Positions 7,553-11,096 of a stretch of DNA of 64,000 nt are shown here, one piece after another. The stretch spans positions 544,001-608,000 of the forward strand of contig JAXSNR010000001.1 in NCBI GenBank assembly GCA_037925075.1, in the 5' to 3' direction. Numbering within the stretch: the first letter of the stretch is position 1; every line of letters starts with the position of its first letter. The translations under genes were made by a program, and so were the position numbers. Source of the DNA: Aquificaceae bacterium (lineage in GTDB: Bacteria > Aquificota > Aquificia > Aquificales > Aquificaceae). The notes below the pieces were generated by a model. The model made no database searches. It worked only from the letters and a program-made list of their open reading frames with translations, and was not told where the DNA came from.

Positions 7553-8446
7553 ATGAAGCTTTTTATGATAGGCTTGGGGAGGATGGGGCTTGGTATGTCA
7601 AGAAGGCTTATATCAAAGGGGCATAAGGTGGTGGGCTACGATGCAAGCCCGCAGACAAGGGAAGGGGCAAAGGCTTATATGGAGGTGATCCATAGCTTTG
7701 AACAAATACCAAAAGAAGAGGAAAAGCTTTTGTGGCTTATGGTGCCTCACGATGTGGTGGATAAGGTCCTTGAGGATATAAAGCCTTACCTTAGGGAAGG
7801 GGATGTGGTGGTGGATGGGGGAAACAGCTACTACAAAGATTCTCAGAGAAGATACGAAAGGCTTAAGGCTTTTGGCGTGAGCTTTTTGGATGTGGGTGTG
7901 AGCGGTGGAGTTTATGGGGAAGAGCTGGGCTACTGCCTTATGGTGGGAGGTGAAAGGTCCGCCTTTGAGAAGATAGAAGCAATTTTGAAGGATCTGTCCT
8001 ACGAAGGAAAAGGTTATGCCTACCTTGGTACTTCCGGTGCGGGGCACTTTGCCAAGATGGTGCACAACGGCATAGAATACGCCTTTATGCAGGCTATAGG
8101 TGAGGGCTTTGAGCTTTTAAAGGAAAGTGGTTTTAACTATGACCTAAAAGAGGTGGCACGCATATACAACACGGGAAGCGTTATTCGTAGCTGGCTTATG
8201 GAACTCACTCAAAAGGTCTTTGAGGATTTTGGAGACTTGGAAGGTATAAAGGCCTATGTGGAGGACACGGGGGAAGGACGCTGGACGGTGGAAGAGGCCA
8301 TAAAAAGGGCTGTGCCAGTGCCTACCATAGCGGAAGCCCTCTTTGCCCGCTTTCGCTCAAGACAGGAAAACTCCTTTAGGGACAGGCTTTTGGCAGGCCT
8401 TAGGTTTGAGTTTGGAAGGCATCAGGTAAAGCAAAAGAATGAATAA
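7553..8446 (+). CDS. gnd: 6-phosphogluconate dehydrogenase (short-chain, decarboxylating)
   Basis: GLGRMG, VDGGNS, DVGVSGG, AGHFAKMVHNGIEY, EGRWT, FGRH. Confidence 0.95.
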   Translation: MKLFMIGLGRMGLGMSRRLISKGHKVVGYDASPQTREGAKAYMEVIHSFEQIPKEEEKLLWLMVPHDVVDKVLEDIKPYLREGDVVVDGGNSYYKDSQRRYERLKAFGVSFLDVGVSGGVYGEELGYCLMVGGERSAFEKIEAILKDLSYEGKGYAYLGTSGAGHFAKMVHNGIEYAFMQAIGEGFELLKESGFNYDLKEVARIYNTGSVIRSWLMELTQKVFEDFGDLEGIKAYVEDTGEGRWTVEEAIKRAVPVPTIAEALFARFRSRQENSFRDRLLAGLRFEFGRHQVKQKNE

Positions 8447-9734
8447 GAGTTTTTCCCTTTTTATCTTTGGTGGCACGGGAGACCTTGCAAAAAGAAAGCT
8501 ACTTCCATCTATCTCAAGGCTTTACTCTAAAGGCTATTTAAAGGGGCTTGACAAGGTCTATTCCTTGGCAAGAAGCAAGCGGGAGGATTGGGAGAGAGTA
8601 GCCTGTAAGTTAGACAAAGGCTTTGGGAAGCTGTGCCACTTTATACCTTTTGACGCCAAAGATTGGAACTCTTACGTGGAGCTTGGAAAGGTTATAGAAA
8701 AGCTAAAAGGTCAGGAGCTTATCTTTTTCCTTTCCCTCAGTCCCTACCTTTTTGAGGATGCTATAAGAAACCTCGGAAAACTTCTTAGAAACTACACAAA
8801 CCCGAGAAAGATTGTGGTGGAAAAGCCCTTTGGCTTTGACCTGACCTCCGCCAAAAGGCTAAACGACCTTTTGCACCGGTATTTTATAGAAGAGGAGATA
8901 TACCGCATAGACCACTTTCTTGGAAAGGATACCATTCAAAACCTTTTCTCCCTTAGGTTTTCCAACATCATATTTGAAGGCATATGGAACAGAAGCTTTA
9001 TAGACCATGTGAGAATACTCGCCCTTGAAAAGGTAGGTGTAGAAGGAAGAGGAGAGTTTTACGACAAGGTGGGAGCCATAAGGGATATGCTTCAAAACCA
9101 CATGCTTCAGATGCTTGCCTTTACCGCCATGGAGCCACCCGCCTATATGTCAGAGAAATACATAAGAGACGAAAAGGTAAAGGTGCTCAAAAACACACGC
9201 ATTGAAAAGCTCATAAGAGGTCAGTACGAAGGCTATCTTAGGGATGTGGGAGTGGAAAGCTCAAAGACGGAGACCTTTGTAGCTTGTAAGATTTTTGTGG
9301 ATAACTTCCGCTGGCACGGAGTGCCCTTTTACCTGATAACAGGAAAAGCCCTTTCTAAAAAACTAACTCAAATAGAGATTGTTTTTAGAGAAATCCCACA
9401 GAGCCTTACAAAGCTACTGGATTGTAAGCCCCACCAAAACAAGATTATCTTTCAGACCGCACCCGAAAGCAAGCTTCAGATATTCTTTGAGCTAAGACCA
9501 CCCACAGGCAAGTTTATAGCCTGCCCTGTGGAAACCTCCATAGAGTACAAGTTTCCCTCAGAGTTTGAAGACGCCTATGAGGTGCTACTCCTTGACATTG
9601 TAGAGGGAGACCAATCTCTTTTTATAAGGGCTGATGAAATAGAAGCCATGTGGGAAGTGGTGGAGCCTTACCTTAACCTTGAAGAGGAGCCGTTTGTTTA
9701 TAGTTCGGATTTTGAAATTCAGAGGGTGGATTAA
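8439..9734 (+). CDS. zwf: Glucose-6-phosphate 1-dehydrogenase
   Basis: GGTGDLAKRKL, VEKPFG, RIDHFLGK, RDMLQNH, RWHGVPFYLITGK. Confidence 0.96.
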   Translation: MNKSFSLFIFGGTGDLAKRKLLPSISRLYSKGYLKGLDKVYSLARSKREDWERVACKLDKGFGKLCHFIPFDAKDWNSYVELGKVIEKLKGQELIFFLSLSPYLFEDAIRNLGKLLRNYTNPRKIVVEKPFGFDLTSAKRLNDLLHRYFIEEEIYRIDHFLGKDTIQNLFSLRFSNIIFEGIWNRSFIDHVRILALEKVGVEGRGEFYDKVGAIRDMLQNHMLQMLAFTAMEPPAYMSEKYIRDEKVKVLKNTRIEKLIRGQYEGYLRDVGVESSKTETFVACKIFVDNFRWHGVPFYLITGKALSKKLTQIEIVFREIPQSLTKLLDCKPHQNKIIFQTAPESKLQIFFELRPPTGKFIACPVETSIEYKFPSEFEDAYEVLLLDIVEGDQSLFIRADEIEAMWEVVEPYLNLEEEPFVYSSDFEIQRVD

Positions 9735-9750
9735 TAACGATGACAGCTTG

Positions 9751-10029
9751 CTAAGAAGTTTTATCTCTTCTTCTCTTTTTCGTAAAGCTCATTCTCTCTT
9801 CCTTCTTTTTGATTTCCCTTAAGGCGAATTCCACAATAAGAAATAAACTAAGAAATAACGCAAAATAAAAGATGTGTTTATCCCAATTTACTCGCTCTCC
9901 TTTGTAATAGTCATACAAAGGCAAAAGGATGTTCAAGATGATGCTCAATAATAGCAACAACCTTGCTGTTTCAAGCCTTGTTATAAGTCTTCTTATAAGC
10001 CTTCTGTCTGAAAAGAGTATTTTAAACAT
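9751..10029 (-). CDS. Small AT-rich hypothetical membrane protein (two TM segments, basic termini)
   Basis: 92-aa ORF, purine-rich AGAAGG upstream of the ATG, two hydrophobic runs; more AT-rich than flanking genes. Confidence 0.65.
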   Translation of the reverse strand: MFKILFSDRRLIRRLITRLETARLLLLLSIILNILLPLYDYYKGERVNWDKHIFYFALFLSLFLIVEFALREIKKKEERMSFTKKRRRDKTS

Positions 10030-10085
10030 TTTTACCTTCTTATTTTATAACCTTTCTCTACATTCTCAACTATGCAATCAGCAAC

Positions 10086-10180
10086 ATTTCAACTCCACAC
10101 GGTAGATTAGCAACAGCAATTATCGTGGGACTTTTACAGATTGGGAAAGCTCTTTCAACTCCACACGGTAGATTAGCAAC
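10086..10180 (-). CRISPR. Orphan mini CRISPR array: two 29-bp repeats, one 37-bp spacer
   Basis: Repeats at 10086-10114 and 10152-10180 are 28/29 identical (minus strand GTTGCTAATCTACCGTGTGGAGTTGAAAG, Aquificae-type with GAAA(G/C) 3' end); spacer 10115-10151; no cas genes in the window. Confidence 0.88.
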
Positions 10181-10310
10181 CTCAAAACACCACATAAAAA
10201 ATAATAAGAACTATCAAAGCTTTTGTCAATACCCTACCCTTTTCAAATAAAGGTGATTTGCCAAAAACTTCAGGTCGTGCAAGGTTGAGTGTGTTATTGT
10301 TAAATTTAAA
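10181..10310 (-). promoter_or_regulatory. Putative CRISPR leader
   Basis: AT-rich non-coding stretch abutting the 5' end (minus strand) of the intact repeat; far boundary approximate. Confidence 0.6.
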
Positions 10311-10312
10311 CC

Positions 10313-10406
10313 ATTGAAAAACAAGGCTTTGAGCTATACGCCGTATTACCGTAAAACCGTAATTATGTCTTTACGGCTTTATGGCATAACTAAAGCCCTA
10401 TTCAAT
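10313..10406. repeat. Long imperfect inverted repeat with 8-bp-period CCGTA units
   Basis: CCGTA at 10341, 10349, 10357 mirrored by TATGT/TACGG/TATGG at 10364, 10372, 10380; outer arms GGCTTT/AAAGCC and ATTGAA/TTCAAT. Confidence 0.7.
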
Positions 10407-10466
10407 TGCCAAGATAACAAGGGACTTAAAGCCCCTATAACCTTGGAGTGAGTATAATTATACCGC

Positions 10467-11096
10467 ATGAAAATAAAGGTCTTTTCCTCAAACAAAACGG
10501 AGGATATCCTGCTTAGGTTTCTTCGGAGGCTAATTAAAACTTTCCTCAAAAGCCACAAGGTTTGTCATATAGCTTTGGCTGGTGGGAAAACTCCCATGAA
10601 GCTTTATAGAATGCTTTCTTCCGAAAGTCTTCAGTGGGATAGGTTAAGGTTTTACCTGAGCGATGAAAGGTATGTGCCCATTTCTTCCGACCTTAGCAAC
10701 TACAAAAACATCAGGGAAGCTTTGGGAGAGAGGGCAAGGCTTGCCTTTTTCAAAACGGAGATGCCACCGGAAGAGTGTGCCATGGACTACAGCCTTCAAC
10801 TACCTGAAAGGCTTCATATTGCCTTGCTTGGTGTAGGCTCCGATGGGCATACCGCCTCCTTGTTTCCACAGGTGGAATGTGAAGATGTTAGCCCAAAGGT
10901 TTGCTTGAGTAGGTCTCCGGATGGGCTTTTGAGGCTTTCTTTAAAAGAAGAATATCTAAACTCTTCCTGTGTGGTGGTGTTTTTCCTAAAGGGGGAAGAA
11001 AAAAGGCAGGCTCTTGAGTGGCTCCTAAGCGAAGGTTCCGTTCCCGCAGGAAGGATTAGAGGCAGACTAAGGAGTTATGCATTTACAGATTTATAA
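10467..11096 (+). CDS. pgl: 6-phosphogluconolactonase
   Basis: IALAGGKTP, DERYVP, SN, LLGVGSDGHTASLFP; follows zwf. Confidence 0.92.
   Translation: MKIKVFSSNKTEDILLRFLRRLIKTFLKSHKVCHIALAGGKTPMKLYRMLSSESLQWDRLRFYLSDERYVPISSDLSNYKNIREALGERARLAFFKTEMPPEECAMDYSLQLPERLHIALLGVGSDGHTASLFPQVECEDVSPKVCLSRSPDGLLRLSLKEEYLNSSCVVVFFLKGEEKRQALEWLLSEGSVPAGRIRGRLRSYAFTDL

Follow-up and report, generated by a model that had tools for sequence, protein, structure and literature searches.

A decayed orphan CRISPR array between zwf and pgl of an Aquificaceae bacterium holds a small gene in its oldest slot, probably through oversized capture

Gene-sized foreign fragments that occupy a spacer slot between two CRISPR repeats have been described in Sulfolobus: SiL-E1, a pseudo-spacer of about 2 kb, resides in CRISPR_2 of S. 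islandicus LAL14/1 (PMC3718332), and an 899-bp plasmid fragment lies between repeats of locus F in S. solfataricus (PMC4390879). As far as the accessible portions of these sources go, SiL-E1 is homologous to its donor up to both repeat edges, and its mechanism is unproven; the origin of gene-sized pseudo-spacers has been an open question since the Sulfolobus description. Mini-arrays of the CreR, CreTA and CrePA kinds, according to the accessible text of three preprints (bioRxiv 2023.03.03.530964, 2024.01.05.574328, and 2023.03.10.532045), consist of a single spacer enclosed by two repeats, with a small cargo gene alongside. Aquificales genomes each carry several scattered arrays, many of them without adjacent cas genes and some with few repeats; the available sections of the source mention neither genes between repeats nor a leader common to two repeat families (PMC4227106), both of which are encountered here.

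Like the Sulfolobus cases, the locus between zwf and pgl of an Aquificaceae bacterium (genome G000; 1.6 Mb, 99.95% complete, 4 contigs) holds a gene-sized fragment in a slot between two repeats (Table 1). It is read here as a decayed orphan CRISPR array whose oldest slot contains a whole small gene, which was probably acquired by oversized Cas1-Cas2 capture and is likely read from the leader promoter. Integron cassette arrays, in which an upstream promoter is followed by recombination sites that alternate with small genes (ORFan, membrane, or toxin-antitoxin) of the same sense, offer a further comparison.

Table 1. Features of the zwf-pgl locus (positions in the window, i.e., the whole 64-kb stretch of DNA analysed) and other gene-bearing units of the same kind
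Feature	Position	Strand	Remarks
zwf (G6PD)	8439..9734	+	431 aa; Pfam
Distal degenerate repeat R4	9710..9738	-	20/28 match to the repeat; coincides in part with the new zwf 3' end
Gene-sized pseudo-spacer, 347 nt, 33% GC	9739..10085	-	between R2 and R4; holds R3 and the ORF
ORFan, 92 aa, predicted two-helix membrane hairpin, N-in/C-in, basic tail	9751..10029	-	same sense as the array
Shine-Dalgarno-like AGAAGG	10035..10040	-	5 nt ahead of the ORF ATG; from sequence
Collapsed 23-nt repeat R3	10063..10085	-	abuts R2
Repeat R2, 29 nt	10086..10114	-	type I-associated Aquificaceae repeat family
Spacer, 37 nt	10115..10151	-	target search negative
Repeat R1, 29 nt, leader-proximal	10152..10180	-	
CRISPR leader	10181..10444 (far end ~10444)	-	predicted sigma-70 promoter at 10229-10201
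pgl (6-phosphogluconolactonase)	10467..11096	+	Pfam; divergent from the leader
G000 unit, 105-codon acidic ORF	C1:655299-655702 (L027)		beside an ODP gene; cas6 there in G013, G016, and G024
G002 cassette, 129-aa two-helix protein			
G024 cassette, 255-aa outer-membrane-like protein	L086:2250-3085		
G011 cassette, 83-codon membrane ORF			
L276 cassette, 44-aa basic ORF			
G051 cassette, hicB/hicA-like pair			
G012 toxin-antitoxin-like unit			eighth case, merged away by de-duplication; label read from sequence; no Pfam match

The 732 nt that separate the two genes have a GC content of 32-38%, against 42-47% in the flanks, in keeping with an earlier note on this DNA that had recognized an AT-rich insert of about 730 bp. 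The elements it had read on the minus strand (leader, repeat, 37-nt spacer, repeat, degenerate repeat, and ORF) are likewise all present. R1 and R2 are identical over 28 nt; the 29th base of the repeat, C at 1085 of the 1114 unique spacer junctions of relatives, is G and T at this locus. The score of the collapsed R3 is reached by 0.08% of 40,000 random genomic 23-mers and by 0.12% of 20,000 AT-rich 23-mers. The promoter-like site of the leader, TTGACA-17-TATTAT, agrees with the consensus at 11 of 12 positions, and no terminator-like site was found between it and the ORF. A weak promoter-like sequence that overlaps R3 (TTGAGA-16-TAAAAT, 10069-10042) is not significant, the promoter scan returning three sites versus 2.3 expected. 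Contigs from three of eight hot-spring DNA runs (X1-X3, from one study and one of them maybe the source sample; the lack of cover on the ORF in X5-X8 carries no weight) bridge zwf, repeat, ORF, and repeat with zero differences; therefore, the locus is not a one-off misassembly.

Rfam returned a single chance snoRNA match (E=3.2), and a hairpin-wrapped, IVS-like cassette was rejected, as the predicted fold, which has no shuffle control, contains no long end-to-end stem. Where zwf and pgl are separated, a TATAAT-like box with no clear Shine-Dalgarno sequence is often seen by eye 10-15 nt ahead of the pgl start (window 10450-10467, L002-L023), and none was seen by eye in G019 and G023, where the two genes are contiguous, hinting at possible leaderless transcription after operon breakage.

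The position of the ORF relative to the array depends on a fourth repeat. R4 is the sole 20/28 site on both strands of the genome, in which ten sites score 19, none scores 21-24, and the five true repeat copies score 25-28. As it lies downstream of the ORF, 376 nt from R2 start to start, the ORF is located inside the array and fills a 347-nt slot, a long fragment flanked by R2 (28/28) on one side and by R4 on the other, as in described pseudo-spacers. The earlier note, which missed R4, was right about the presence of the ORF and wrong in placing it after the array. R4 lies 9 nt from the end of the zwf homology to relatives. This homology ends at codon 421, the approximately 22 conserved terminal residues being replaced by ten codons that run through R4, and the protein has 431 aa in G000 versus 442-444 in G003, G013, and G019. 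Residues 1-421 are 79.6-84.3% identical to those of relatives, compared with 77.1-85.8% for gnd, so the remaining zwf appears to show no clear excess divergence. Truncations that end no more than 9 nt from a repeat edge are seen in cas6 (G000 C2:430682-431255) and in a Cas7 fragment (G051 L297:1486-1727) as well as in zwf (window 9702-9738).

The product of the ORF bears out its earlier description as a 92-aa basic protein with two transmembrane segments encoded on the strand of the array: two hydrophobic peaks (19-residue means of 1.95 and 2.16) are accompanied by 6, 3, and 11 Lys and Arg residues in the N-tail, loop, and C-tail, respectively. Its topology resembles that of class II holins. 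No homologue was found in 5.8 billion proteins by a word search at near and longer lengths, nor in 1.84 billion representatives, the 24 other genomes of the genus, or viral contigs; thus, the homologues beside arrays that the earlier note had proposed to look for are missing from the genus genomes. Scans against PHROG and NCBIfam gave no matches, Pfam matches had E-values of at least 0.018, and PADLOC returned a weak match to KwaA (E=0.008); the Pfam and PADLOC matches are weak hydrophobic ones. A fold search yielded no BFVD matches at E<=0.001, a helical hairpin making such a search uninformative. Neither in sequence nor in fold does the protein match a known holin or toxin. The best guess is a phage- or plasmid-derived accessory membrane protein.

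A frame for which no relatives were found might also be a chance one, untranslated in AT-rich filler, with R4 a chance match and the locus merely a shrunken array. The lack of homologues among the 1.84 billion representatives agrees with this, as does an ESM recognition value of 2061, below the range of known families (best atlas match 0.87). Such an explanation is nevertheless most improbable: an ORF of this length arises in only 13 of 5000 shuffles of the cassette and here follows a Shine-Dalgarno-like motif, the single-sequence structure model comprises two long helices forming a hairpin (pLDDT 81.5), R4 is unique genome-wide and coincides with the zwf junction, and the layout recurs in relatives.

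The site itself has a history. Among the 24 other genomes of the genus, 22 contain pgl. G003 has a leader and 23 repeats of the same family between zwf and pgl, and G013 has a homologous leader and ten type III repeats, both without the ORF; in G016, G024, and G002, trailers of other kinds adjoin the pgl side. Depending on the genome, the trailer behind the pgl-leader is that of zwf, thiF, or cobB. Because long arrays occupy the site in relatives, the G000 locus is a remnant of a long-standing array site and not a new mini-array. The contiguity of zwf and pgl that the earlier note proposed to look for in relatives thus holds for G019 and G023 and gives way to arrays in G003 and G013, and its idea of a dispersed orphan leader-repeat cassette is right as to dispersal and wrong as to a fresh insert. 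The leader shares 88% identity, over approximately 250 nt, with the leaders of both type III-A arrays of G000 (C2:447244-447495 and 451175-451424), with copies in 15 of the 24 other genomes.

In other respects, the array components are ordinary. The repeats are identical to those of multi-spacer arrays (up to 64 copies), the conserved leader has a predicted promoter, and the spacer is of ordinary length, the commonest lengths with this repeat being 36-37 nt (37-38 counting the last base of the repeat). The named genome records in which the repeat occurs are those of Aquificaceae (Hydrogenobacter, Thermocrinis, and Aquifex labels) and Thermodesulfobacteriaceae, together with a small number of MAGs bearing loose labels. 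An array of this repeat adjoins cas2, cas1, Cas7, and cas6 in G016, which identifies the repeat as type I, presumably of subtype I-B. The type III-A locus of G000 uses a different repeat and lies on C2, a contig other than that of the mini-array. Family searches of this genome found no cas1 (PF01867), cas2 (PF09827), or DevR-family Cas7 (PF01905), while cas1 passes the cut-off in 8 of the 25 genus genomes. The only Cas6_C match in G000 is a fragment devoid of residues 1-50, whose start coincides with the edge of a solitary copy of the mini-array repeat. Thus, the cognate genes for adaptation, for processing, and for the effector were not found intact. These genome-wide searches gave no cas1, cas2, Cas7, or Cas6_C match in the 64-kb window, so the earlier statement that it contains no cas genes stands for the families covered. 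Many type III systems lack cas1 and cas2, and some use crRNAs from type I systems, according to the accessible part of PMC9048733.

Repeats of two families, type I and III-A (alike at 17 of 29 positions when compared by eye), are found behind the same leader; at the zwf-pgl site, one family takes the place of the other (G013 L074), and within one array (G009 L130), the two are mixed. A leader common to both suggests that they may share an adaptation module. Most array leaders of the genus and family (L072:3058-3270, dozens of genus leaders, and G092 L298) contain a small divergent RHH/Arc-like gene (PHROG 582, E=0.016) that adjoins repeated TTACGG motifs. The gene, a candidate array regulator, is missing from the zwf-pgl leader, and tblastn gave no significant match to it in G000. 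In the first type III-A array of G000 (C2:447573-448014), two spacers occur twice each, as expected if the array is frozen. A generic repeat scan also detected a coding coiled-coil tandem repeat at G000 C1:57795-57926, beyond the window, and an AT-rich non-coding direct repeat at C1:155467-155569.

Searches for a target of the spacer, which the earlier note had proposed for the host genome, for viromes, and for partial PAM-flanked matches to cas or ORF promoters, were negative throughout. The best match within G000 covers 23 of 37 positions, compared with 23-25 in 15 shuffles. Scans of IMG/VR with 18-mers hit 13 and 1 loci, extending to just 20-24 of 37 positions; among 148 genomes of the order, only the spacer itself was recovered at up to three mismatches; and BLAST against phage and plasmid sets gave matches of 17-18 nt at most (E 5-6). 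None of the 1114 unique spacers of relatives matches the mini-array spacer or a gene-bearing cassette beyond 18 nt. Against the ORF insert (best 12/20) and the type III-A cas locus (best 15/20), no match was obtained, the PAM of the system not having been derived. A 10-nt seed pattern of the spacer has 17 non-self genomic matches versus 0-9 in ten base shuffles, which ignore codon bias; these matches cover merely 14-21 of 37 positions and share no common flank, and none falls in the insert or the cas locus.

The seed-pattern excess bears on the remaining proposal of the earlier note, a CreTA/CrePA-like or Cas6-gated unit in which spacer RNA or repeat cleavage would control a toxic, holin-like membrane protein guarding the CRISPR system. 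Such control is very doubtful. A mini-array does adjoin a small basic two-helix ORF of class II holin-like topology, a type III-A effector with its Cas6 and a shared leader is present in trans, two other cassettes hold toxin-antitoxin-like genes, and the weak KwaA match points the same way. On the other hand, searches for cas1, cas2, and a type I Cas7 were negative, the cognate Cas6 is a truncated form, the seed matches miss both insert and cas locus, and the PHROG, NCBIfam, and fold searches did not connect the protein to a toxin or holin family. The repeats are canonical, the spacer is of ordinary length, and the site is a known array site at which the ORF is not conserved beside arrays in the 24 genus genomes; besides, a guarded toxin should presumably have fired upon loss of the type I system. 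Two defining features, as far as they can be taken from the accessible text of bioRxiv 2023.03.03.530964 and 2024.01.05.574328, are lacking: a position in an effector-bearing cas locus and a partial match of the spacer to a toxin or cas promoter. In contrast to the mini-arrays of these preprints, the zwf-pgl array is neither in nor near a cas locus, its genome yielded no type I effector and only a type III-A system on another contig, its gene lies inside the array, and long ordinary arrays occupy the site in relatives.

The arrangement recurs in related species, which suggests that Cas1-Cas2 likely takes up an entire gene from time to time. Of 83 distinct ends of arrays or solo repeats, nine are followed, 89-1229 nt downstream on the same strand, by a copy of at least 20/28, compared with 0 of 83 on the opposite strand; this tally, drawn from ends with 1200 nt of downstream sequence, includes the zwf-pgl locus and L297 (fetched because its repeat pair was visible), and the relatives in it are not independent. 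Seven of the nine enclose same-sense ORFs (the zwf-pgl locus, G000 C1:655k, G002, G024, G011, L276, and G051; Table 1), although ordinary trailer genes are often same-sense too. Dropped from the cassette count were L122 (IS insertion), L130, L199, and L201 (hybrid type I/III arrays), L154 (no ORF of at least 40 aa), L261 (leader duplication), a gap of Ns in G023, L109 (a gene, a second leader, and a III-type repeat, 19/28), and L132 (19/28, 1772 nt). The last of these (G002 L132:2494-4294) is a borderline 1.7-kb cassette consisting of a solo repeat, a ubiB-like gene (label read from sequence), the 19/28 copy, and a thiF-like trailer that directly follows arrays in relatives. The L027 unit has the same 376-nt repeat spacing as the zwf-pgl unit (348 nt between 28-nt cores) with an unrelated sequence, and its ORF has no other copy among 61 genomes. 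None of 1215 inter-repeat gaps in 60 metagenome array loci bears a gene; gene-bearing gaps are rare, old events. The repeat occurs in no viral contig, and a phage attachment site or viral solitary repeat is accordingly unsupported.

Filled and empty forms of the same site can be compared in two instances. The trailer beyond the G024 cassette abuts, at 98-99% identity, the last repeat of arrays in G008, G010, G012, and metagenomes, and that of the hicBA-like unit of G051 is 97% identical to the trailer of a 51-repeat array in G092. The G024 insert shares 92.8% identity, over 875 nt, with a locus of G017 (L212), whose genome is devoid of this repeat. The homology starts approximately 6-7 nt past a TTGACA-17-TATAGT sequence of G017, i.e., at the predicted transcription start, and stops where a 12-bp hairpin has its foot, immediately ahead of the T-run. 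Both ends of the insert abut repeats with no spacer remnant, and four nucleotides of microhomology (AAAC) are found at the 5' junction. The transcript-sized fit is a single, post-hoc case; the G051 and G002 inserts carry more upstream DNA. The gene of the G002 cassette has a repeat-free homologue in G009, its 5' side comprising some 25 unmatched nucleotides so that the junction is not clean. A short 20-nt spacer ahead of the G024 cassette contains a TGnTATAAT extended -10 motif.

In contrast to the Sulfolobus pseudo-spacers, the Aquificaceae inserts are bacterial, occur at 7-8 loci across the family at the old or trailer ends of arrays, and are complete single genes or gene pairs in array sense. 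The sole traced donor is a repeat-free locus of a sister species, with no indication of a plasmid nature, and its homology reaches both repeat edges as in SiL-E1; the zwf-pgl ORF differs in having no known donor and a worn distal repeat. The likeness to integrons consists of an upstream promoter, repeated site-like elements, and small same-sense genes in between, to which filled/empty pairs and two repeat-free donors may be added. Unlike in integrons, neither IntI nor attC is present, no cassette was found at two different array sites, and each array holds one cassette.

These data must be weighed between capture and recombination. The main rival to capture is a mosaic in which dispersed near-identical repeats act as short homology anchors, and a gene behind the last repeat of another array is joined through repeat-anchored and microhomology recombination without an integrase, becoming a passenger. 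It ranks as the main rival because an exchange of flanks and repeat types between arrays is visible: leaders and trailers occur in varying combinations at different loci, with the same trailers behind different leaders; one repeat family has taken the place of another at one site (G013), and the two are mixed in a hybrid array (L130); and deletions stop at repeat edges (cas6 in G000 and the cas7 fragment in G051). The AAAC microhomology of G024 would be compatible with illegitimate recombination, and the available portion of PMC3718332 offers recombination through a matching spacer as another possibility, while speaking against random recombination for such inserts. Recombination of this kind is a serious, if rather unlikely, explanation, as it predicts partial spacer remnants or ragged ends, whereas the G024 insert matches its donor to both repeat edges, and the donor genome has no repeat copy that could serve as an anchor.

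Oversized capture by Cas1-Cas2 appears somewhat better than an even choice for the zwf-pgl locus, where R4, the only 20/28 site of the genome, is found at the zwf junction in the orientation of the array, and no such ORF occurs in the 24 other genus genomes. Against it speak the messy 5' junction, which consists of a collapsed repeat, the lack of fresh captures among the 1215 metagenome gaps, and the fact that arrays also recombine. Protein, genus-genome, and viral searches found no donor of the ORF, so its own junctions are without comparison. An array occupied the site in this lineage, as the long arrays or empty site of relatives indicate. Before their loss, Cas1-Cas2 probably joined a foreign fragment of approximately 350 nt at a repeat and duplicated the latter, and retention would favour inserts that lie in the sense of the leader promoter and carry a ribosome-binding site. 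The distal repeat has decayed to what are now the last codons of zwf; decay of the 3' ends of arrays is routine, at least in the accessible part of PMC4869251. With the type I and adaptation genes lost and the cognate cas6 truncated, the array is likely frozen. Its RNA is predicted to be an unprocessed 5' leader of about 170 nt for a small inner-membrane protein, because there is no terminator-like site before the ORF and no cognate Cas6.

A DNA route for a transcript-sized insert is plausible, since the type III-A system of Streptococcus thermophilus shows a preference for hairpins, terminators, and gene starts during adaptation (PMC8860593, accessible text). RNA capture by RT-Cas1 or through an RNA intermediate was rejected, the reverse transcriptase family PF00078 being found in none of the 25 genus genomes; the available portion of bioRxiv 2020.02.27.968263 gave no mention of reverse transcriptase activity in polymerases of Aquificae phages.

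A bolder and decidedly speculative extension is that Aquificaceae arrays might function as an integron-like platform for gene capture. Between duplicated repeats, Cas1-Cas2 would integrate DNA the size of a transcription unit, with cuts at transcription starts and terminator hairpins of the kind seen in the G024/G017 pair, and the leader promoter would express it. Useful captures would outlive the cas genes, the 92-aa ORFan would be a domesticated example, and the same activity could explain the deletions at repeat edges.

The zwf-pgl locus is the weaker example, as donor and function are lacking, and its value resides mostly in the pattern that it uncovered. The open-access literature, supplements aside, yielded neither entire genes recurring in array sense within Aquificaceae arrays nor a donor whose junctions coincide with transcript edges. 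Within the family, there are several independent cases, comparisons of filled and empty sites, and a near-identical donor that is free of the repeat and has base-exact junctions, which permits direct testing with thermophile Cas1-Cas2. A natural long-fragment integrase, if confirmed, would be of interest for genome writing. If the integrase captures and expresses whole genes, CRISPR adaptation would constitute a route of horizontal gene gain and genome shuffling.
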